A stretch of 12,035 bases of DNA from Candidatus Thorarchaeota archaeon (GTDB lineage Archaea; Asgardarchaeota; Thorarchaeia; Thorarchaeales; Thorarchaeaceae), in assembly GCA_048882485.1 (NCBI GenBank), contig JBHLRP010000075.1:1-12035 (forward strand), given 5' to 3'. Shown here in pieces: positions 1,438 through 12,035 of this stretch. The first letter of the stretch is position 1, and each line of letters begins with the position of its first letter. The notes under the pieces are model-generated. The model was not told where the DNA came from and made no database searches. It saw nothing but the letters and a program-made list of their open reading frames with translations. A program made the translations under genes and the position numbers.

Positions 1438-2652
1438 TCACTTTTTCTTTCTATCAATCAGTTCTTGATAGATTGTCAATAGCTGTTTCGCATGCTGCAT
1501 AATGTCATATCTCTCCCTAACAGACATGAGTGCGTTTTGTGCAATTCGTTTCATGAGTTCATCGTCTGAAAGGAGCCTCTCGACGGCATCAGCAAGCGCA
1601 CGAACATCATTCGGTGGCACAGTAATTCCATCATAGTTATTCCTGACTATCTCCCGTGGACCAAACACATCTGTGGTCACCACTGGCACACCGCAGGCCA
1701 TTGCTTCAACTATTGAGAGTCCAAATGGCTCTCTTCTTGATGGGTAAAGAAAAATCCTGCTCTTGTTTATCAGAATAGGGACGTCCTCAGTCTTAACGAC
1801 GCCTTGATAGTCGACCATAGACGTGATGCCTTGTTTCTCGAATTCCTTGAATAATTCCTCTTTGAGAGACCCCTCGCCGGTCATCACCATCGTTAGATGG
1901 GGAAACTTGACTCTAAGGAGAGATAGCATCTCTGGAAACAAATCGACAGACTTCATTTCTTCGAGTCTACCCATGAATGCCAAGTCCCACTGTTTGTCCA
2001 TATCAGGTATTGGTCTAAAAACTGAGAGGTCTATCCCGCTGTATACTGTACGTAGTCTGTTGTGAAACTCCCCTTTGAGATACTTTTTGATAGTGCCTGC
2101 GACATTCTCGCTCACTGCTACAACAAGGTCGAACACAAATTCCTCGAAGAGCTCATCGTAGTCGGTGGTTTCTCTCCCATCTGGCAGAATGAGCGGCTTC
2201 GGAAGACCATGTATTGTCAATACTACTGGGACCTTGATTTCTGATTGCAGCCTCAGATTTGACAACACTCTGTTGAAAATCACATACGTACTATGTGCAT
2301 GAATCACATCTGGCTCAACCTTACAAATGAGCTTCTGGAGCTGGTCTGTGAGTCTATCAACGTTCTGGGCGATGTCTGTTGATTTGAAAAGCCTCTTGGC
2401 TGCTTCTGCCTTCTTTTCTTCAGGGAGTGCATAGAACTCCCATTTCCTAGCCTCAAGCAAGTTTCCAGTCAGGTGAAAGATTATGTAATGCTCCTTCTGA
2501 ACTGACTCTGGAGAGTCTCGATACGGTGACTGTGTGACTACAAACGATTCATGTCCCAATGAAGCCATCGCCTTTGAAAGATAATGGATGATGGACTCGT
2601 AACCACCAAGACCGGCAGGGTTAAGGCTATCACAAAGGTGGAGAATTCTCAT
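1438..2652 (-). CDS. Glycosyltransferase family 4 (GT-B fold, RfaB/WcaL-like)
   Basis: N-terminal MRILHL...GGYE, PDVIHAH, LTIHG, GIDLSVF, FMGRLEEMK and the ExFG...EAMA motif EPFGLSIVEAMACGVPVV. Confidence 0.93.
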   Translation of the reverse strand: MRILHLCDSLNPAGLGGYESIIHYLSKAMASLGHESFVVTQSPYRDSPESVQKEHYIIFHLTGNLLEARKWEFYALPEEKKAEAAKRLFKSTDIAQNVDRLTDQLQKLICKVEPDVIHAHSTYVIFNRVLSNLRLQSEIKVPVVLTIHGLPKPLILPDGRETTDYDELFEEFVFDLVVAVSENVAGTIKKYLKGEFHNRLRTVYSGIDLSVFRPIPDMDKQWDLAFMGRLEEMKSVDLFPEMLSLLRVKFPHLTMVMTGEGSLKEELFKEFEKQGITSMVDYQGVVKTEDVPILINKSRIFLYPSRREPFGLSIVEAMACGVPVVTTDVFGPREIVRNNYDGITVPPNDVRALADAVERLLSDDELMKRIAQNALMSVRERYDIMQHAKQLLTIYQELIDRKKK

Positions 2653-2711
2653 TCACAGTCACAATCAATCTCAGTAGGAGGCCCCTAATCTATCTAACGA
2701 GGAGCACACCA

Positions 2712-3797
2712 GTGAAGTCTGATGAGGAAAAACATCCAGCATTGGTTCCCCTTCCGGATAGAGTACGTGATCGAGATGTATTTCATGATAAGGTTGAAAG
2801 GGTCTATGTGACCCTCGGCTACATACAGCCAGAAGACAGAATCCTTTCGTTCTTCAAATACATTCCACATCCAGAAGGAAAGTGGCGAACAGCAGACCAA
2901 CGATACAAGCGTATCTTCTGGGGAGGGGGTGCATCAGCAGCCGAGGGTATGACCAAGGTTCCAGATGACTATCTTGTACACGATTCGCACTTCGGTAGTG
3001 ATCTCCTTGAGGTTCCTAGAACAGATGTTGAGAAGTACTTCAGTCCTGAGATTCGTGTGAAAGAGATTCTGGAATCTACATCACGTGATCCTCTTGAGGA
3101 GAGTGTCGCCCAGATGACTGAAACCCTCCATGACACACTTGGTATCCCCTTCGAAAGACTTGGCGTCACTGGCAGTATTGTATGGAAAGCGCATAACCCA
3201 AGCTTTTCTGACATCAACATGAACATCTATGGCTTTGATAGAGCCTGGCATCTACAGAAGGGTTATGATGAAGTTGCAGAGCGGAACCCTCACATGCGCC
3301 TTCGACAGATGCATGAATGGAAACGGACCATGGCCAGAGTCGTGGAACGTATTCCTGTTCTTCCTATCGAATCCATGAAAGAGCTGTTCACAAGGAGAAA
3401 GGGCCTTCTCTGTCATGAACGATCAATAGGAGTCATGCCAATACTTCTCCCTGATGAGGCTCCAATAACTCATGGTAGTGAGTCGTATGCAACAATAACA
3501 CCTGAACCAGTGCGAGTAAGCATGGAGATATCCGATGAAACATATGGCCTGTTTCTTCCTGCAATCTATCTGGGCGAGTCCCAACCTATCGAGCTTTTAG
3601 CTGACGAACGCGTCACTAGAATCATGGTCTATGAGGGGTCATTCCGTGGGCTCATTCGGAGTGGTGACAGAGTTGAGGTGTCCGGGATTATCCAAAGAGT
3701 TACACCCATAGATTTGGACACTGATCCATTCTATCAATTAATGGTTGGTTCAAAGGCTGGTGCAGGGAAGGAGTATATCAGACTTACAAATTCCTAG
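2712..3797 (+). CDS. Archaeal predicted nucleotidyltransferase (COG1665-like, Pol-beta superfamily core plus C-terminal OB-like domain); catalytic motif degenerate (DxN)
   Basis: RDRD...GY..P N-terminus, LGVTGS...SDINMNIYG, and C-terminal YEGSFR...GDRVEVSG. GTG start with SD GAGGAG at 2699-2704. Confidence 0.75.
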   Translation: MKSDEEKHPALVPLPDRVRDRDVFHDKVERVYVTLGYIQPEDRILSFFKYIPHPEGKWRTADQRYKRIFWGGGASAAEGMTKVPDDYLVHDSHFGSDLLEVPRTDVEKYFSPEIRVKEILESTSRDPLEESVAQMTETLHDTLGIPFERLGVTGSIVWKAHNPSFSDINMNIYGFDRAWHLQKGYDEVAERNPHMRLRQMHEWKRTMARVVERIPVLPIESMKELFTRRKGLLCHERSIGVMPILLPDEAPITHGSESYATITPEPVRVSMEISDETYGLFLPAIYLGESQPIELLADERVTRIMVYEGSFRGLIRSGDRVEVSGIIQRVTPIDLDTDPFYQLMVGSKAGAGKEYIRLTNS

Positions 3798-4867
3798 AAC
3801 TCGACGGTGTCAATCGTCTTGAGGACATTAGCCTCCCATCCCAGCGGATAGCTCAATGCGATTTGGTCGTACTCGGTTCTTCTCCTTTCAACATGCTCGA
3901 GTATTCCGGAAACTATCACCTCTTCATCTCTAAAGGCCATCATCCTGAACTGCTCAATATAGTTGAGGACTCTTGTTGGAGAGGCGCTTGAGTCGCCTTC
4001 AATCACCTCAAGTGTTTCAATTCCATACTCGCTGGGCATGTAGTAACTATCTTTGTGGTCTGTGATTCGTGCCCTGACGGTGATACGCTCACCCGGGGTC
4101 ATTATTGCGTCCTCAGCAAGGTTGTCAATCTCCTCAAATCTGCGAATTGGTTCAAACTCAACCTTCAGAAACTGGTCACGGACTCCAGGAAGGACTCCAT
4201 AAATCCCTTTTCGTCGGTGGTGAGCAATAATCTCCTCGCGGGTTATCGCGGTGAATGGAGAAGGCTTCTCCAGAAACTGCTGCACTTCAACAATGAACTC
4301 ATTGGCAAGATATCCGTTGGGCTCCGAATACCACTCGAGCAGATGTGGACGAAGCCGTTCAAAGGTCTTCCTTCCGTAGACTGTTATGTCCAAATCTGAG
4401 AATTGAGGATGATATATTCCAGCCAGAAGACTCCCAAATATGCCTAAGTCAGCCCTCTTTATTGATGTGTTTTCAACGAGGTAATCAATGAGTTCAACCA
4501 AGAGATTCGCAAGCAGGTCATCAGGCGGCGATTCAAGCATCTCCCTCAAACGAGCATCAGTCCTTAGCTCCTTTTGGATGTCATGATGTGTCACTCCAAC
4601 AAGGGTTGTTTTCAGTGGAGAATAGGGGATCATGAATTGAGGATACCTCTCTGTGACGAACTCGATACCCTCCGAGCCATAGAACTTACAGTACCCTTTC
4701 TTTCGAATTCGTTGGTCAAGGAGAGTCTCTGAGTTGAAGATTGACATGGGTACATATTCAGGGTCACAGACATAGCCTGATGATGGATGCCAATAGCCAT
4801 AGACCCGAAAGAAGATTCCAGGTTCTGTGAGAATGAGATCACGGTCTCGGAGTGTATGTTTTGACAA
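3794..4867 (-). CDS. Archaeal predicted nucleotidyltransferase (COG1665-like) with intact GS...DxD motif
   Basis: LRDRD...GYWHP, LGIFGSLLAGIYHPQFSDLDITVYG (hG[GS]-x-DhD), and C-terminal YIEQFR...DEEVIVSG. TTG start; the stop overlaps its paralog's stop in CTAG (3794-3797). Confidence 0.8.
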   Translation of the reverse strand: MSKHTLRDRDLILTEPGIFFRVYGYWHPSSGYVCDPEYVPMSIFNSETLLDQRIRKKGYCKFYGSEGIEFVTERYPQFMIPYSPLKTTLVGVTHHDIQKELRTDARLREMLESPPDDLLANLLVELIDYLVENTSIKRADLGIFGSLLAGIYHPQFSDLDITVYGRKTFERLRPHLLEWYSEPNGYLANEFIVEVQQFLEKPSPFTAITREEIIAHHRRKGIYGVLPGVRDQFLKVEFEPIRRFEEIDNLAEDAIMTPGERITVRARITDHKDSYYMPSEYGIETLEVIEGDSSASPTRVLNYIEQFRMMAFRDEEVIVSGILEHVERRRTEYDQIALSYPLGWEANVLKTIDTVEF

Positions 4868-4956: not shown

Positions 4957-6027
4957 TTGATAACCGTGTCGTTCGATAGACCTTTCGTACGAACAAAAGA
5001 GCGTGATGGAGAGAAGGCTAGACAGGCCCTTATTGACGCAAAACTTCTAGATACTGAGTGCAAGATAGCAAAAGACGAAGACTGGCTATACTTTCCACTG
5101 ACTCAGAAGAAGACAGAGAAAGGACTCAAGAAAATCCTTGGGAAAATAAAATATGAGATTGGTAGGCGAGAGTTCACACCAGTATTCATGGGTCCCAAGA
5201 CCCTTTCAGAAGCACTTGTAGGTCTTATTCCTTCAGATCTATTGGAATTGCTCCCTCGTGCGTACGACCTGATTGGCGATATCGCTGTCATAGAGATTCC
5301 TGATGAACTCACAGACTATGATCGCCAAATTGGTGCAGCTCTCAAGACAGTCCACAAGAATTTCAATACTGTACTCGGTAAGAAGGGTGCAATATCCGGA
5401 ACAACACGAGTACGTGAATATGAGGTGCTAGCAGGCCAGAATAAGACAAAGACCATTCACACAGAGTATAATCTTAGGATTGCGGTCGATGTCGCGAAGG
5501 CCTATTTCAGCCCAAGACTGCTTGAGGAACACAACAGAATCGCCGACTTGGTCACAGATGATGAGCTGGTCATTGACATGTTTACGGGAGTTGGACCCTT
5601 TGCATTACATATTGCAAGACGCCACAGGGTCAAGGTCTACGCAGTGGATATCAACCCGGATGCCATTGACCTGCTTCAAGAAAGCTTGGAGCTAAATCGT
5701 TTCGCCGGAGAAGTCATCCCAATACTAGGAGATACCCATGAATACATTCAGAGCGGCTTTGATGGTGATGTCGACCGCGTGATTATGAACCATCCTTCAG
5801 GGGCATTCGAGTTTGTGGTGGATGCCTGCAAAGCTCTGAAACCGGAAGGCATCATGCATTACTATGAGTTTATTGGAGGGGACGACCCCGAGGGCAGCCT
5901 GACCGAGAGGATTACTAGTCTTGTCGAGGAAGCTGGCAGACAGGTTGCTCGGATTGAAACGATTCGTAGAGTGCGTGATAGCGCGCCTCATGAGTACCAG
6001 GTGGTTGCTGATGTTGTCATTCGGTGA
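4957..6027 (+). CDS. trm5: tRNA (guanine37-N1)-methyltransferase Trm5 (Met-10+ family, with N-terminal D1 domain)
   Basis: PRAYDLIGDIAVI, TIHTEY...DVAKAYFSPRL..E, SAM motif DMFTGVGPFAL, VDINP, DRVIMNHP and R.VR.SAP. The ~75-aa N-terminal extension is consistent with D1 of Trm5b/c-type enzymes. Confidence 0.88.
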   Translation: MITVSFDRPFVRTKERDGEKARQALIDAKLLDTECKIAKDEDWLYFPLTQKKTEKGLKKILGKIKYEIGRREFTPVFMGPKTLSEALVGLIPSDLLELLPRAYDLIGDIAVIEIPDELTDYDRQIGAALKTVHKNFNTVLGKKGAISGTTRVREYEVLAGQNKTKTIHTEYNLRIAVDVAKAYFSPRLLEEHNRIADLVTDDELVIDMFTGVGPFALHIARRHRVKVYAVDINPDAIDLLQESLELNRFAGEVIPILGDTHEYIQSGFDGDVDRVIMNHPSGAFEFVVDACKALKPEGIMHYYEFIGGDDPEGSLTERITSLVEEAGRQVARIETIRRVRDSAPHEYQVVADVVIR

Positions 6028-6442
6028 CAAAGAGGATCTCACATTGCAATTGCGTTTTATGATTCCTCAAAGCATCAACGAATGAGCGGTCCAAATCAAC
6101 GGCAGCCTTGTCTGCGCCTACCATGAGTGTCCTATCACAAATGAATGAGCTTTTTCTTGCCACCATGCTGACCGTATCTAAATATGTGAGTCTTGGATCC
6201 CCTCTTCCTGTTATCTCCTCCATGAGATTACCCACCTTCAACTTCAGAACGATCTTGGTCTTTTTTGATGCCGCAAGTGCCTTTATTTTGGGGGGGACCT
6301 CATTCAATGATTTGTCAGCTCGGACCCCTATGATGCATGTGCCCCTCTGAGTGAGAAAGTCTTCAGTGGTGATCTCCACTGTGGTCCTGTGATTTGCAAG
6401 CACATTTACATGCCCACAGGCCTGAAAGTGCACACTCTGCAT
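6017..6442 (-). CDS. DUF371 family protein (COG2090), function unknown
   Basis: GHVNVLANHRTTVEITTEDFLTQRGTCIIGV, G.GDPRLT, SMVARKS.F...RT...ADKAA.DLDR. Confidence 0.88.
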   Translation of the reverse strand: MQSVHFQACGHVNVLANHRTTVEITTEDFLTQRGTCIIGVRADKSLNEVPPKIKALAASKKTKIVLKLKVGNLMEEITGRGDPRLTYLDTVSMVARKSSFICDRTLMVGADKAAVDLDRSFVDALRNHKTQLQCEILFVTE

Positions 6443-6461
6443 AGCGAAAACATGGCGGTCA

Positions 6462-6474
6462 ACGCTTTTATCAT
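6462..6474. promoter_or_regulatory. Putative shared TATA element for divergent DUF371 and pcm genes
   Basis: TTTTATCA at 6466-6473 lies about 25-30 bp from both the DUF371 ATG (6442) and the pcm ATG (6499). This fits leaderless archaeal transcripts; neither start has an obvious SD. Confidence 0.4.
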
Positions 6475-6498
6475 TGCATGTTCATTCGTGTATTGGTA

Positions 6499-7179
6499 AT
6501 GATGCGGGACAGCTCACTAGAAAAGCAGAAGGAAAACCTCGCTCACAGTCTTCAACGCAGAGGTTACCTCAAGACAGATGCAGTAAAACGCGCATTCATG
6601 GCTGTCCCCCGCGAGGAGTTTGTGCTACCAGAGTCCAGAAAACATTCCTACCGCGACTCGCCCCTCTCCATAGGACTTGGTCAGACAATCTCAGCTCCGC
6701 ACATGTGTGTCATTATGTGTGAAGGCCTTAATCTGACTGAGGGGCTTAGCGTCTTAGAAGTGGGTGCAGGTTCTGGCTATCACGCCGCTCTATGTGCTGA
6801 GATAGTGGCACCACCGAACTCCCCCAATCCAGGACACGTCTATACCATTGAGATTGTCAAGGGCCTCATTGACTTTGCACAGGGCAATCTTGAACGTGCA
6901 GGATATGCAGACAGAGTGACCCTGATTCAGGGTGATGGCGGCAAAGGCCTGCCTGATGAGGCTCCGTTCGACAGAATACTTGTTGCGGCCGCTGCCCCAA
7001 CTGTTCCCCCGCCTCTGATAGAACAGCTCCGACCTGGAGGGATTATGCTAATCCCAGTAGGATCTCGCGGGTTCTATCAAGAGCTGATGATGGTTCAGAA
7101 GGATGAAGACTCGAAAGTGACGAAGAGAAGATGGGGTGGGGTGGCTTTTGTGCCTCTCACTGGAGAGTTTGGTCACTAA
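6499..7179 (+). CDS. pcm: Protein-L-isoaspartate O-methyltransferase
   Basis: VPREEF, GQTISAPHM, VLEVGAGSGYHAA, GDGGKG, APFDRILVAAA, LRPGG.MLIPVG, VAFVPL.G. Start chosen at ATG 6499 from TATA spacing; 6478 and 6502 are alternatives. Confidence 0.95.
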   Translation: MMRDSSLEKQKENLAHSLQRRGYLKTDAVKRAFMAVPREEFVLPESRKHSYRDSPLSIGLGQTISAPHMCVIMCEGLNLTEGLSVLEVGAGSGYHAALCAEIVAPPNSPNPGHVYTIEIVKGLIDFAQGNLERAGYADRVTLIQGDGGKGLPDEAPFDRILVAAAAPTVPPPLIEQLRPGGIMLIPVGSRGFYQELMMVQKDEDSKVTKRRWGGVAFVPLTGEFGH

Positions 7180-7181
7180 AA

Positions 7182-7859
7182 TCAGGCTTTGTGCAGCGGG
7201 ACTATTGTGAGTGTTATTGAATCGTTGTCCTTGAGCTTCAGCTTGGCCCTCAGGTTGACCTCCGAGATGACCTCCAAGATCTCTTGTCCATGGTGAGTTC
7301 TCTGCGCGATGACGACAGCGCCATCAATTTTCTCGTTTATTTTAGCACGATAGCAGACTACATCACCAAATGACCGACCCTCATGAGTGAATCCTGGCAC
7401 GATAAGCGGGGGTGTCTGCTTCATTCTGTTTATCGCACTCCGTGAGTCATCATCAACAATCTTGACATTAAGGGTGCCAGAAAATGGCTCGAATCCAAGT
7501 GCATCATAGAATCTAGGAGCATATGCATCGACATAGTACGCGCCTTGCCCAAGGCCGTGCACAACCCGCCCAGCTATTACTATCTCCTCCTCAAAGGGAA
7601 CAAGCGCAAGTTCGAGGCCTGTCCTCACGCTCTTCAGTTCCTTGACGCCTTTTTTGGATATCTGAATAAGCATCCCATTTGCCGTATGTATTCTATTCAC
7701 ATAGCCCTCATCAGCACAGTAGGTCACTCTGCGGGATGCAGTCTGCTGGCTAACTCCTAGTAAATCACCAAGCTTTCGAGTTGTCAGGACGGTTCTCTTA
7801 TGAACTGCACCTTCTTTAGCCAGTACATAGAGAGTGAACCAAACATCAGGTGCAATCAT
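7182..7859 (-). CDS. ribK: CTP-dependent riboflavin kinase with N-terminal winged HTH (RbkR-type bifunctional kinase/regulator)
   Basis: HTH TTRKLGDLLGVSQQTASR; kinase motifs GRVVHGLGQGAYY, PFSGTLNV, RTHH..EILEVIS..NLR..L.LKD.D. SD AGGAG at 7871-7875. Confidence 0.92.
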   Translation of the reverse strand: MIAPDVWFTLYVLAKEGAVHKRTVLTTRKLGDLLGVSQQTASRRVTYCADEGYVNRIHTANGMLIQISKKGVKELKSVRTGLELALVPFEEEIVIAGRVVHGLGQGAYYVDAYAPRFYDALGFEPFSGTLNVKIVDDDSRSAINRMKQTPPLIVPGFTHEGRSFGDVVCYRAKINEKIDGAVVIAQRTHHGQEILEVISEVNLRAKLKLKDNDSITLTIVPLHKA

Positions 7860-7887
7860 CTTACTCTGCTCTCCTAGCTCTCTCTTA

Positions 7888-8523
7888 TTATTGATTGCCT
7901 CTCAGTCGGTCTTCAAAGCCTCTGAGTTCCTCCACCAGTTTGCTCTGTTGAATCGCTGAAGTGATGTCCCCACGGGTCCGTTCAATGATAGATCTGGCCA
8001 CATCACATTTTCTCCTGAGTTCCGGTACTAGAGCATTTGGAAAATCAAAAGTGTGTAGCTCGTCAAGTATCTCCTCCATGAAACCAAGTAAGTTCACTGC
8101 GGAATCGACCTTCTCCTCTCGAAGTGAGTCCAATACTGCTCTTCTCAATTCGCCGACAGTATCTGCAAGGCCAGTTAGATAGGCTCGTGTCGGAATCCCG
8201 TACTTATCAGGTGGAGTAAAGGCGCCGTCTTTGAGGAGGGCTAATAGATTTGCTGCTTCTGCTACCTCTTGATAGGCAATATCTAGCAACTTGGAGCGGG
8301 ACACGAATTCGCTCCCTTTCATTTCTTTCATAGCCTGCTCTATGATTTCTTGAGCCTGAGATAGAAGATTCTCGGCCGAGTCGAAGTTCCCCCTATGGGT
8401 TTCTTTTATTGACTCACTACATTTTCTTACTGCAGACCTTGACAATGGGAGTACTTTCTCTCGAACTCCATCGTCTGTTTCAATTTCAGCCCTCATGGGC
8501 TTAAGAATCTCGGAAAGCTTCAT
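7888..8523 (-). CDS. Translin/Trax family (archaeal C3PO-like) ribonuclease, COG2178
   Basis: D.VRE....SR, YQEVAEA, YLTGLADTVGELRR, LRRKCDVAR...ERT. ATG 8523 is preceded by SD AGGTGA (8535-8540); GTG 8538 and ATG 8535 are alternatives. Confidence 0.9.
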   Translation of the reverse strand: MKLSEILKPMRAEIETDDGVREKVLPLSRSAVRKCSESIKETHRGNFDSAENLLSQAQEIIEQAMKEMKGSEFVSRSKLLDIAYQEVAEAANLLALLKDGAFTPPDKYGIPTRAYLTGLADTVGELRRAVLDSLREEKVDSAVNLLGFMEEILDELHTFDFPNALVPELRRKCDVARSIIERTRGDITSAIQQSKLVEELRGFEDRLRGNQ

Positions 8524-9559
8524 GGCTGTCGCCATCACCTTGATTATTGTGAATCTTCTTTATGTGTTTCTTACTAGATAGCAGAACGACTCTGCTTTCG
8601 ACCTGCTCGTTTTGAATATAATACCCTGTTAACGATGCTAGCTTCTCAGAAAAGGCACGAATCTCTCGATGTGAAGGTGCATTCTCTTGGGCCAGTCGTC
8701 CCCTGGATGAACCCAGATACATGAACCCCTTTACTTCGATGAAATCGGGTTCTCCCCTAAGAATCATATCCGCGTAGGATCGAACTTCATGCATGTTCTC
8801 TCCCTCGACCATTGTGAGTCGATTCGTGCGCCGACATGAGAGTGAATGAAGCAGCTCCTGTGTTTCGTTCAGTCTTTTCCAGCCTTCAGAAATACCCGGC
8901 CTACATAGATTTCTGTACACCTCTTCATTTGGTGCTGCAAGTGTGATATACAGCTGTGTGGGGAGTGACATCTGAGCTAGCACTTCTGGTTGAGTGCCAT
9001 TTGTTACAAGAAAAGTGGTCATATCACGCTCTTGTGCTTCATCAATGAGTTCGCTTAGATAAGGATAGAGGGTTGGTTCTCCTGCTAATGAAATGGCAAG
9101 ATGCTTTGGATCTCTGGCCTCCTCGTACTTCTTGGCAGGAACACTTGGAGTAACATCAGGGTTGTAACCTCCTAATGACCTAAGGTTCGCCATGAGAGTC
9201 TGGTCTAGCAATTCTGATGGAGGAAGTACATCGTCTTGTGTAATAGATGTCTGATCCCATCCCACACCCACATCCGCAGGTGTGACTCGCCAGCAGAAGT
9301 CGCAGTTCTGAGTGCATTTGTCAACAACTGGAGTCATCTGCAGGCATCTATGGCTTTCAATCCCATAGAATCGCTGCTTATAGCAGACATCTCCATACAG
9401 CAGGCTCTTTCTCTGCCATTGACATGCCTTGAATGCTCCACGCTCTCCTAGAAGATGATACCCCTGCCGTTTGAGCTTCTCTTGCAATTCAGTAGGCATG
9501 TCAGAACTCAATGTACATTCGGGCAGAGTCCGAGGGGCTGTCTTATGAGGGTTTGGCAA
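8501..9559 (-). CDS. taw1: tRNA 4-demethylwyosine (imG-14) synthase Taw1/TYW1, radical SAM
   Basis: Auxiliary-cluster Cx12Cx12C (CQWQRKSLLYGDVCYKQRFYGIESHRC) with the Schiff-base Lys; radical SAM CTQNCDFCWR; AISLAGEPTLYP, FLVTNG, PDFIEVKGFM..G.S, SRVVLL. Start is TTG 9559 or ATG 9499. Confidence 0.95.
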   Translation of the reverse strand: MPNPHKTAPRTLPECTLSSDMPTELQEKLKRQGYHLLGERGAFKACQWQRKSLLYGDVCYKQRFYGIESHRCLQMTPVVDKCTQNCDFCWRVTPADVGVGWDQTSITQDDVLPPSELLDQTLMANLRSLGGYNPDVTPSVPAKKYEEARDPKHLAISLAGEPTLYPYLSELIDEAQERDMTTFLVTNGTQPEVLAQMSLPTQLYITLAAPNEEVYRNLCRPGISEGWKRLNETQELLHSLSCRRTNRLTMVEGENMHEVRSYADMILRGEPDFIEVKGFMYLGSSRGRLAQENAPSHREIRAFSEKLASLTGYYIQNEQVESRVVLLSSKKHIKKIHNNQGDGDSHEAFRDS

Positions 9560-9570
9560 TAGCCATTACA

Positions 9571-10833
9571 TCACTCGGGCGAAGCCAATCTTGTTGCCAG
9601 AGCTTCTTGACTGCTCCATGACCCAGTCAATATACCCCTTCGAGAGAGCTCCCCAAGTGCACTCCTACTATCTTGGTCCAGTCTTCCAGGTGACATGTTC
9701 TCAAAAGCACTCCCTGGCAAGGGCATGAAGACATGGCCGTGGACCTTTGCACCCATATCTGAAAGCATCTCGCACATGTCTATGCTATCATCAAGTTCTT
9801 TCCTTGATTCACCAGGAAGTCCGAATATCATGTCAACATGCGGCGTGAAATCACAATCAAGTGCAATCTCAACTGCGTCTAGCCCTTCCCGTACGGTATG
9901 ATGACGATTGCTATATTCGAGAACTTTGTCACTGGCTGACTGAAGCCCAATCTGGAGCGTATCATTCGCCACATAGGTCCGCATCATCTCCAAGACTTGT
10001 CTGGTGACAAACTCAGGTCTTACCTCAGATGGAAACGCTCCGAAGAATACCTCCTCAAGTCCTTCCACTGATGCGGATTCCTTTAGCAGACGCTCTAGCT
10101 TATCGGGTACCACACTAAGTCCTTTTCCACCATACGATAGGGCATTAGGAGAGAGGAACCATGTTCTCTTGAAGCCTCTTCTTTCAACCGCTTGTTCAAG
10201 CCAATAAACCACCGAATCCACGGATCTGTGTCTTACGCCCCCGCCGGTGAGGAAAGGTGTACAGCAGAATTTGCAGGCAAACGGACACCCTCGAGTCACT
10301 TCTACTGGTCCCAGGATATTCAGACCTAGAGCAAACGGTGGGTAGTCATCAAGCGAAACCGTGGGTCGGTCTCTTGGCTTCGGGATGGAAACATCCTCTT
10401 CTGTGACCACTCCATCTATTTTCGTGGGCTCATCATCATTGATTAGACTATACATCAAATCTCTGAATACCTTCTCACCTTCGCCAATCACGACGAAATC
10501 AAAGCCCGTTCTTATCAATTCCTTGGGCCTTGCACTTGCATGAGGTCCGCCGCCGACGATTATCACGGATTCACCAAATCTGTCCCTTATCCTCTTAGTC
10601 TCATTATAGACTCGATCTATCTGGGTGCTCATGACTGACTGGGCAATGATGACCTGTCCCCGCTCAGCCTCTCGTTGAATCATGTTATCTGAGAGTTCAA
10701 GAGGTGCACTCACCTGAAGGTCATTCAACCGATGGTCTGTTTCTATTGACCCAAGAAGGGCTGCTACGCTATAACGTGAAGAGGAATGTGAACGGAATAT
10801 CAAATGATGGGATGCCAAACAATGCACACGCAC
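9571..10833 (-). CDS. B12-binding domain/radical SAM protein (MJ1487/TIGR04013-like), function unknown
   Basis: Cobalamin-binding region GGGPHAS...DFVVIGEGE; EVTRGCPFACKFC (CxxxCxxC); RHRS, SPNALSYG, FFGAFPSEVRPE, DMIFGLPGE, H.FMPLPGS. Confidence 0.88.
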   Translation of the reverse strand: MRVHCLASHHLIFRSHSSSRYSVAALLGSIETDHRLNDLQVSAPLELSDNMIQREAERGQVIIAQSVMSTQIDRVYNETKRIRDRFGESVIIVGGGPHASARPKELIRTGFDFVVIGEGEKVFRDLMYSLINDDEPTKIDGVVTEEDVSIPKPRDRPTVSLDDYPPFALGLNILGPVEVTRGCPFACKFCCTPFLTGGGVRHRSVDSVVYWLEQAVERRGFKRTWFLSPNALSYGGKGLSVVPDKLERLLKESASVEGLEEVFFGAFPSEVRPEFVTRQVLEMMRTYVANDTLQIGLQSASDKVLEYSNRHHTVREGLDAVEIALDCDFTPHVDMIFGLPGESRKELDDSIDMCEMLSDMGAKVHGHVFMPLPGSAFENMSPGRLDQDSRSALGELSRRGILTGSWSSQEALATRLASPE

Positions 10834-11426
10834 TAGTTGTCAAAGACCTGTTCAGTGACCCCATCCTTGGTCACTGTCATAACGCGTATAGCTCCACCAG
10901 ACTGTGCATCTCTGGCAATTCCAGCCTTCACTGCGTCGACCGCAATCTTCTCAGCTTCCTTGACTGTCAGGCCTTCTTTGTAATCTTTCTCAAGGACACC
11001 GTATGCTGTCTGTGTACCACTCCCTGTAGCTGTAAACTCATCAGGGATGAGTGATCCACCCATGTCTAGGGAGTAGAGTGCAGGGCCGCTTTCATCAACG
11101 CCGACAATCACTGTCTGTACATAAAGGGGTGCCATCTTCTGCTGATAGAGAGTATTGGAGATCATCTTGGAGAGGGCCCTCACGCTGATGGTCTTCTTCT
11201 GATTCAGCTCGTAGAGCTTGATGTAGGCCTGAAGCCTGTTCACAAGCATTTGATAGTCTGACGTTAGTCCAGCAGAGGCCAAGACTATGGAATCAGTCAG
11301 CTTGAACGCCTTGACGCCTTGGTCTGTGAGAATGAAAGTGCCCCAGCTAATCAATGAGTCAGTAGCGACTACGGCACCATCGCTGCATTTTATTCCGACA
11401 ACAGTTGCACCAGTAGGAAGTGACAT
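10833..11426 (-). CDS. psmB: 20S proteasome beta subunit, predicted non-catalytic (Ala at Thr1)
   Basis: MSLPTG-ATVVGIKCSDGAVVATD, AGLTSD, IVGVD..GP.LY..D.GG, ATGSG, ARDAQSG. True start ATG 11426 with SD GGAGGT at 11436-11441. The ORF-track extension to 11681 would overlap nog1. Confidence 0.93.
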   Translation of the reverse strand: MSLPTGATVVGIKCSDGAVVATDSLISWGTFILTDQGVKAFKLTDSIVLASAGLTSDYQMLVNRLQAYIKLYELNQKKTISVRALSKMISNTLYQQKMAPLYVQTVIVGVDESGPALYSLDMGGSLIPDEFTATGSGTQTAYGVLEKDYKEGLTVKEAEKIAVDAVKAGIARDAQSGGAIRVMTVTKDGVTEQVFDN

Positions 11427-11481
11427 TAATACAAGACCTCCGTCGGGACTCACGTCCCAGATTAGGGTCAGGAAGGTTCTG

Positions 11482-11494
11482 TTTAAAACGTTTT
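11482..11494. promoter_or_regulatory. Putative bidirectional TATA box with overlapping palindrome between psmB and nog1
   Basis: TTTAAAA (11482-11488) reads as a TATA box on both strands, sits midway between the divergent starts (11426, 11545) and overlaps the perfect palindrome AAAACGTTTT (11485-11494). Confidence 0.45.
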
Positions 11495-11544
11495 GACCTG
11501 TTCCTTTTGTACGGACAGTAGCTTTCAGGAAATGGTAGTCGGAA

Positions 11545-12035
11545 ATGAAATGGTTGAATCCCTTTGTAAAGATCCCAACAATCATGACTGCAGAGGAGAT
11601 TATAGACTTCGCCCATAGGAAGTCAACAAGACTCAGCATGAAGAGCTCTCTTAGATTAAAGCGGGTTGAACGCACTCGCATCAGAGAGATATCTCGCCTT
11701 CAAGAGTTCACAAAACAGGTCAAGACGAAGCTGAAGAACGCGGTAGAGGACTTTCCTACTCTAGACCGACTTCATCCATTCTACTATGAACTGGCCGAGA
11801 TTCTAGTTGGCACTGATAGACTGAAGCAAGCCCTTGGTGCAGTCTATAATTGCATTCCTCCCATTGACGACATCACAAACAACCATATCCAAGCATTGAA
11901 GCTCGCAGACGACTTCCGGCAGATGAAGAAGACACGCAGGGCTGCAAAGGGGAGGATCTCATCCATCCTACGAGCAACTGCGCCCAATCTGGACTTCATT
12001 ATTGAGGCAAAGATGAAGATGGCTCGTCTTCCTGG
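11545..12035 (+). CDS. nog1: NOG1 family GTP-binding protein (ribosome biogenesis), N-terminal helical domain; 3'-truncated by the window
   Basis: Manual translation of frame 1: MKWLNPFVKIPTIMTAEEIIDFAHRK...REISR...FPTLDRLHPFYYEL...LKQALGAV...AKGRISS...MARLP. It is open to the window end and absent from the ORF track. TTG 11554 is an alternative start. Confidence 0.9.
   Translation, partial: MKWLNPFVKIPTIMTAEEIIDFAHRKSTRLSMKSSLRLKRVERTRIREISRLQEFTKQVKTKLKNAVEDFPTLDRLHPFYYELAEILVGTDRLKQALGAVYNCIPPIDDITNNHIQALKLADDFRQMKKTRRAAKGRISSILRATAPNLDFIIEAKMKMARLP

Follow-up and report, generated by a model that had tools for sequence, protein, structure and literature searches.

Among the closest described parallels to the genes considered here are the enzymes that make the prosthetic groups of citrate lyase and malonate decarboxylase. 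There, a 5-triphosphoribosyl adduct is formed from ATP by CitG and then transferred, with loss of pyrophosphate, by the partner of CitG, CitX/MdcG, which is a nucleotidyltransferase (NTase) with GS and DxD motifs. Throughout the DNA polymerase-beta (Pol-beta) superfamily both carboxylates of the DxD pair bind catalytic metals, and D-to-N mutants are normally inactive. Inactive NTase-fold paralogues are nevertheless kept for binding, as in the N-terminal pseudo-NTase module of TUT4/7, domains I-II of OAS3, OASL and the DZF domains of NF45/NF90. Methanopterin ends in a ribose-5-phosphate ester-linked to 2-hydroxyglutarate, and to our knowledge no enzymes have been assigned to the attachment of this ribose-phosphate-hydroxyglutarate tail. 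Here we consider two convergent (tail-to-tail) genes, A and B, in a 12,035-nt stretch of DNA (the window) of Candidatus Thorarchaeota archaeon (GCA_048882485.1, contig JBHLRP010000075.1, labelled C75). They belong to a hitherto undescribed family of Pol-beta superfamily nucleotidyltransferases with three domains and several paralogues, in which A stands for a sub-lineage with DxN in place of DxD. The distribution, autonomy and recurrence of this DxN lineage are new in the present analysis.

The DxD/E metal-binding pair is present in B (D158-L-D160) and absent from A (D167-I-N169), as an initial annotation, made from the letters of the window without database searches, had read correctly. We find the A-type motif, G-x-x-G-S...S-D-[IV]-N, in 121 of 121 orthologues of A (49-91% identical to it), and the B-type motif, S-D-x-D, in 120 of 121 proteins. 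As every orthologue keeps the asparagine, a sequencing error or private mutation at Asn169 is ruled out, and the residue is a character of the clade. The G-x-x-G-S element is invariant in both clades and common to all five lineages of the family (G154/S155 in A, G145/S146 in B). No segment of A is more conserved than the loop around it, G148-G176 (mean entropy 0.85 vs 1.31 over the full length; 29 positions, 10 of them invariant), and the equivalent loop of B is similarly constrained (0.87 vs 1.47 overall). Between genera, A is 42-55% identical, compared with 50-57% for the neighbouring Trm5b. Loop conservation and a between-genus divergence like that of Trm5b thus indicate that A is no decaying copy. 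As judged from its alignments, it is under clear purifying selection, a selected protein whose pocket appears to be still important, even though a canonical two-metal site is unlikely to form there.

The case originally made for A being inactive rested also on a second position, the strand expected to carry the third carboxylate. The residues were read correctly, with acids in KVEFEP of B and none in SIGVMP of A, but as an argument for inactivity the comparison is weak. The strand equivalent to SIGVMP also lacks an acid in the X and Y types, which have DxD, and C carries [DE] two residues earlier on the strand equivalent to KVEFEP. Additionally, a single later acid, just after that strand (E246 in B, E249 in A), is at least 90% conserved across the family. 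Since X and Y lack the acid and A keeps E249, the third-carboxylate strand is not diagnostic.

Homology between A and B is clear both by direct comparison (25% identity over 334 aa, E 8e-17, BLASTP) and between the alignments of their clades (probability 99.5%, E 1.8e-22, 318 columns, hhalign). The initial annotation had called them colinear paralogues from an old duplication, with the reading frame and Shine-Dalgarno site of A intact. This is borne out: the motifs it quoted lie where it placed them, A and B form separate clades, and A is a GTG-started frame of 361 aa with AGGAGC 6 nt upstream. Its description of the genes as 'orphan' does not stand, as a further paralogue, C (342 aa, DxD), is encoded on contig C21 of the same genome, and a search of 1.84 billion representatives returned 826 family clusters at 50% identity. 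The closest database proteins to A and B are all from Thorarchaeota metagenome-assembled genomes (MAGs), and many orthologues carry the JGI label 'predicted nucleotidyltransferase'.

Both proteins have the same order of domains: a beta-rich one of about 100 residues at the N-terminus, then the Pol-beta nucleotidyltransferase core, then an OB fold at the C-terminus. AlphaFold2 models built on the orthologue alignments are confident (mean pLDDT, the per-residue confidence score, 93.3 for A and 91.7 for B). In structural comparisons with VIA-align, the core of B matched TUT7 (Z 8.1), TUT1 (Z 7.3), Trf4 (Z 7.1) and PolX (Z 6.8), and its OB fold resembled those of SSB and the MCM N-terminal domain (Z 8.4); the OB fold of A gave matches at Z 8.0-8.4, and no nucleotidyltransferase chain appeared among the top 50 rows for A. 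The VIA-align lists are dominated by the OB domain and are hence uninformative on the fold of the N-terminal domain (~100 aa). Foldseek against the PDB returned OB-fold rows only, at E > 0.001, and PDB sequence searches with A, B, C and the B-clade profile gave no more than chance-level matches, for example HI0073 at E 0.22. The gathering score of PF01909 (NTP_transf_2; cut-off 21 bits) is passed by B (26.4 bits) and C (22.5 bits). A has no Pfam match at E 0.1, and its place in the family comes through the hhalign comparison with B. A defence-system role was also considered and dropped, as NCBIfam and PADLOC gave no meaningful match.

Our survey of 87 species-representative Thorarchaeia genomes, in which the family Thorarchaeaceae comprises 16 genera, indicates that A does not depend on B. 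A is present in about 76 of the 87 genomes and in 15 of the 16 genera, and C in 72 of 87. B is confined to genus g1 (13 of 16 genomes) and to G001, a single sister-family genome. Within g1, B directly follows A wherever contigs permit a check, and the tail-to-tail arrangement with overlapping stops recurs in 12 genomes of the genus besides the window. In all of the 14 other genera sampled by one genome each, Trm5b lies directly 3' of A in the same direction and B is absent. A is the sole family member in four good genomes (G018, G022, G037 and the closed, single-contig G010; family-wide profile, E 0.1). All three genes are missing from genus g15, whose genomes are 96-99% complete and have no A in the Trm5b block. 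Thus, retention of A without B in most lineages makes an obligate A-B heterodimer unlikely, and B appears to be an accessory paralogue kept beside A in one genus only. A more distant Asgard MAG has C, GT4, a DxN A-type gene and B within 9 kb, and in view of it the proximity of A and B may be an ancestral remnant and not a new insertion.

The wider family consists of five ancient paralogue lineages, X, Y, B and C, all with DxD, and A with DxN. To describe their surroundings we fetched 80 B-type loci, 66 of them outside Thorarchaeota, and scored their reading frames with profiles built in the analysis; the resulting statistics are centred on B, because the loci were drawn with the B-clade alignment. 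Among the 66, another paralogue lies within 10 kb in 63 (Y in 55, C in 41, X in 16), and there is a CitG-family gene in 26, Mch in 19 and FTR in 12. B-type proteins are common in Bathyarchaeia, where the typical order is FTR> <X Y>B> <C ... CitG> ... Mch>, with Y overlapping the start of B, and two further Bathyarchaeia contigs have FTR, MTD, a flavoprotein gene and CitG adjoining the paralogues. An instance independent of Bathyarchaeia is the G001 locus, with X-Y-B, an AIR-carboxylase-like gene, MtdB, FwdB/A/C-like genes, Mch, a RimK-type ATP-grasp ligase, CitG, an unannotated gene, a B12-radical SAM gene and C. No genes for citrate lyase, malonate decarboxylase or acyl-carrier protein were annotated by Pfam in the window, at the G001 locus or on three Bathyarchaeia contigs; the scan of the 66 loci had no such markers.

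The DxN state has arisen more than once. Each of A, B, C and Y forms a clade of its own in a maximum-likelihood tree (SH-aLRT 99-100); B stands apart from the others, and A has the longest stem branch, at 2.01 substitutions per site. Both its motif (GVTGS...P-x-F-S-D-I-[DN]) and its profile scores bring A closest to the X type, and from sequence it looks like an X-type descendant. The core A clade scores at least 398 bits and the next full-length match 218 bits. Further DxN proteins are found in Hodarchaeota, Sigynarchaeota and Thermoprotei, and at least 3-4 changes are required on the X/A/Y branch of a tree of 119 representatives. The Hodarchaeota and Thermoprotei genes have no paralogue within 8 kb. 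A specific D-to-N change that recurs in conserved, stand-alone proteins would be better explained by a shift to binding a ligand or to a different chemistry than by a loss of function.

We regard a CitX/MdcG-like transfer in the synthesis of a cofactor side chain, and not RNA tailing, as the likeliest role of the family. CitG would make a triphosphoribosyl intermediate; B and the other intact members would catalyse attack on its alpha-phosphate by a hydroxyl group of the acceptor, with release of pyrophosphate, and this transfer would build the tail of a methanopterin-type cofactor. Given the chemistry of CitG and CitX and the structure of the methanopterin tail, such a transfer is the most economical proposal for the intact members, and it is by this analogy that we infer it. 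A would work independently of B, either binding a nucleotide or cofactor intermediate or acting as an enzyme with altered, non-canonical chemistry, and would count neither as a pseudogene in decay nor as a subunit dedicated to B. To this reading as a whole, CitX/MdcG-style cofactor-tail chemistry in the intact members and independence of A from B, we give a probability of about 0.5. Our literature search found no paper linking CitG with methanopterin biosynthesis or describing triphosphoribosyl or hydroxyglutarate steps.

Several observations weigh against this proposal. Related Bathyarchaeia supply most of the loci that link the family to CitG, and these do not count as independent cases. A, B and C of Thorarchaeaceae are unlinked to CitG, which in the source genome lies on contig C2, with A and B on C75. 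Genus g15 retains CitG and Mch without any family member, so the family is dispensable in some genomes with CitG and methanopterin-pathway genes. None of A, B and C matched the CitX/MdcG models of Pfam and NCBIfam at E 0.1, and no paper was found on COG1665 or on an archaeal family joining a nucleotidyltransferase to an OB fold. An OB fold and a TUTase-like core would suit an RNA substrate too. As for A, the tree joins it to no single sister lineage, and that Asn169 would abolish catalysis we infer from general knowledge of the Pol-beta superfamily.

The alternative that survives best concerns A itself, which might still be a working transferase, a Thorarchaeaceae isoenzyme of the X lineage in which the Asn carboxamide ligates a metal, or which works with one metal or with other ligands. 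The invariance of the GS...SDIN loop in the most conserved part of the protein and the retention of E249 are consistent with activity, as are the presence of A as sole family member in genomes that still have CitG and the recurrence, at least three times, of one and the same change in place of random degradation. However, the established metal-binding role of both DxD carboxylates and the usual inactivity of D-to-N mutants speak against it, the very long stem branch suggests a functional shift, and A lacks any Pfam nucleotidyltransferase match. On balance we think continued catalysis by A unlikely, if the least unlikely of the alternatives.

More doubtful is a role in RNA metabolism, in which B would be a template-independent 3'-end nucleotidyltransferase whose OB fold holds RNA, and A an RNA- or tRNA-binding derivative acting with Trm5b at tRNA position 37. 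The superpositions of the B core on TUT7, TUT1 and Trf4 and of the C-terminus on OB folds that bind single-stranded DNA or RNA (Z about 8) point this way, as does the position of A, directly upstream of and co-directional with Trm5b in 14 genera, with Taw1, like Trm5b the gene of a tRNA-modifying enzyme, in the same block. Yet the fold scores lie within what the tool terms 'common arrangements', and the OB domains of A, B and C in the source genome are acidic (isoelectric point 4.5-4.7, net charge -5 to -8). The entire ten-gene block is syntenic, and adjacency to Trm5b may simply reflect low rearrangement in one family. Beyond Thorarchaeaceae, the genes that recur near family members are CitG, Mch and FTR instead of RNA genes. 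The initial annotation had deduced an RNA substrate partly from nearby tRNA genes; ARAGORN and Rfam detect no tRNA gene in the window, and this argument is not supported. The wider context of the family is one of CitG with methanopterin and methanofuran genes.

Less probable again is that the DxN lineage as a whole is neofunctionalised and not dead, the repeated change to Asn having turned a cofactor-tail transferase into a one-metal enzyme or into a protein that on its own binds or senses an intermediate, nucleotide-like or of a cofactor, and that was possibly recruited in Thorarchaeaceae to act with Trm5b in tRNA position-37 modification.

The model that the initial annotation put forward, a heterodimer of a catalytic B and a non-catalytic A serving as scaffold, specificity or regulatory subunit, we consider the least probable of all: the overlapping stops in 13 genomes and the linkage in the distant Asgard MAG, which may be ancestral, favour it, and the clustering of paralogues elsewhere, with Y and B overlapping as an operon, is compatible with hetero-oligomers generally, but in Thorarchaeaceae B stays beside A in one genus only, A persists as sole family member in four genomes, the DxN relatives in Hodarchaeota and Thermoprotei have no paralogue nearby, and convergent genes are not co-transcribed. 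A prediction of the A+B complex scored 0.00, below the mark, which counts neither for nor against binding. The second suggestion of that annotation, a split two-step nucleotide-adding system, would fit the multi-paralogue clusters of other archaea.

Features of the window are collected in the following table.

Table 1. Positions of genes A and B, their domains, motifs and signals, and two neighbouring genes in the window.
Feature	Position	Strand	Description
Gene A	2712-3797	+	361 aa, GTG start; member of the Thorarchaeaceae-wide DxN clade
Gene B	3794-4867	-	357 aa, TTG start; paralogue with intact GS...DxD
AGGAGC, Shine-Dalgarno-like site	2700-2705	+	6 nt 5' of the GTG start of A
CTAG, overlapping stops	3794-3797	both	TAG of A (+) and TAG of B (-)
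A, N-terminal beta domain	~2745-3041	+	
A, Pol-beta NTase-like core	~3045-3461	+	
A, OB fold	~3495-3794	+	
A, former active-site loop GVTGSIVWKAHNPSFSDINMNIYG	3162-3233	+	GVTGS...SDINMNIYG; N169 replaces the second metal-binding Asp
A, codon AAC	3216-3218	+	N169
A, strand SIGVMP	3423-3440	+	Aligned with KVEFEP of B; no acidic residue
B, N domain	~4565-4855	-	
B, NTase core	~4133-4531	-	
B, OB fold	~3797-4102	-	
B, active-site loop GIFGSLLAGIYHPQFSDLDITVYG	4373-4444	-	GIFGS...SDLDITVYG; G145, S146, D158, D160
B, strand KVEFEP	4148-4165	-	E237 and E239 invariant in the B clade; candidate third carboxylates
Trm5b-like tRNA (m1G37) methyltransferase	4957-6027	+	Downstream neighbour of A in all other sampled genera; here B intervenes
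GT4 glycosyltransferase	1438-2652	-	Conserved upstream neighbour of A

In the 14 other genera the order is (AAK)-GT4-A>Trm5b> <DUF371 PCMT> <RFK <translin <Taw1 <B12-rSAM <proteasome. The syntenic block of the window (4957-11681) holds Trm5b, DUF371, PCMT, a MarR-fused CTP-dependent riboflavin kinase, a translin-like gene, Taw1, a B12-binding radical SAM gene and a proteasome subunit gene, and the order and orientation of the ten-gene block are constant across 14 Thorarchaeaceae genera (loci L094-L107). Positions 6017-6027 of the window are shared by Trm5b and the DUF371 gene, which converge there with an overlap of 11 nt. Orthology of the B12-radical SAM gene of the window (9571-10833) with that of the G001 methanopterin cluster was considered and rejected, Thorarchaeota orthologues scoring 47-61 bits against the G001 sequence.

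In the closed Thorarchaeota genome CP070658.1 a second A'-B' copy lies at ~1.217-1.219 Mb (L025), in addition to that at ~2.106 Mb (L023); B' is full length, A' matches profile positions 136-354 only, a pattern suggestive of segmental duplication in which A was truncated or has diverged. The start of the C gene (L002, 1462-2490) is overlapped head-to-head by a class-V aminotransferase/SufS-like gene (L002, 196-1596, minus strand). Contig DATKLC010000055.1 (L036), binned with Krumholzibacteriaceae, carries B- and C-type genes and the B12-radical SAM gene typical of the archaeal module, and is either a misbinned archaeal contig or a case of horizontal transfer.

In the source genome the CitG-like gene (L013, 1468-2460, minus strand; G000:C2:197982-201893) is flanked by a Sir2-family gene, and the next gene on its strand encodes a D-isomer-specific 2-hydroxyacid dehydrogenase; such an enzyme could be a source of 2-hydroxyglutarate for a methanopterin-type tail. 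The compact one-carbon island of G001 (L009; G001:C18:27500-47400) includes a 232-aa gene after CitG and a 593-aa gene, both without Pfam match. On a 1.9-Mb Bathyarchaeia contig, a polytopic membrane protein of 329 aa without Pfam match (L010, 7128-8117, minus strand) is encoded between the C-type gene and CitG.

Annotating A and B as a catalytic/regulatory heterodimer, or as RNA enzymes, is unwarranted on present evidence. The best structural matches to the B core, TUT7, TUT1 and Trf4 of TRAMP (Z 7.1-8.1 over 93-95 aligned residues), have the GS/DxD motif in common with it, but they are only 10-17% identical to it, their Z values fall within what the tool calls a 'common arrangement', B has no PAP-associated domain and the gene context is another one. 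The minimal nucleotidyltransferases of PF01909, such as HI0073 and the MNT of HEPN-MNT, are close enough for B to pass the family score and for the B-clade profile to match HI0073 weakly (E 0.22). They are proteins of ~100-140 aa with the motif near the N-terminus, however, whereas the motif of B lies ~145 residues in, between two extra domains, and B has no HEPN partner.

With CitX/MdcG the family shares the GS...DxD Pol-beta motif, a recurrent CitG-family partner gene (in 26 of 66 B-type loci and in the G001 operon) and, as predicted, the chemistry, an alpha-phosphate transfer from a triphosphoribosyl compound with pyrophosphate release. It differs in that the CitX/MdcG sequence models do not match it, in its three domains (with an extra N-terminal domain and the OB fold) and up to four co-clustered paralogues, and in its neighbours, which are methanopterin and methanofuran genes, lyase, decarboxylase and acyl-carrier genes not being among the Pfam-annotated ones. 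The three-domain nucleotidyltransferases and CitG are testable candidates for the tail-attachment steps of methanopterin.

The pseudo-nucleotidyltransferases of TUT4/7, OAS3, OASL and NF45/NF90 resemble A in having kept the fold under purifying selection while losing a metal-binding carboxylate. They belong to unrelated eukaryotic families; in A a single ligand has changed, always to asparagine, the loop does not vary, and some genomes have no other member of the family. The Thorarchaeaceae DxN clade is a natural experiment, one invariant and recurrent D-to-N change in the metal site of a strongly conserved protein. If A catalyses, it would widen the range of chemistry at Pol-beta-fold sites; if it only binds, it would be a prokaryotic pseudo-nucleotidyltransferase with a function of its own.

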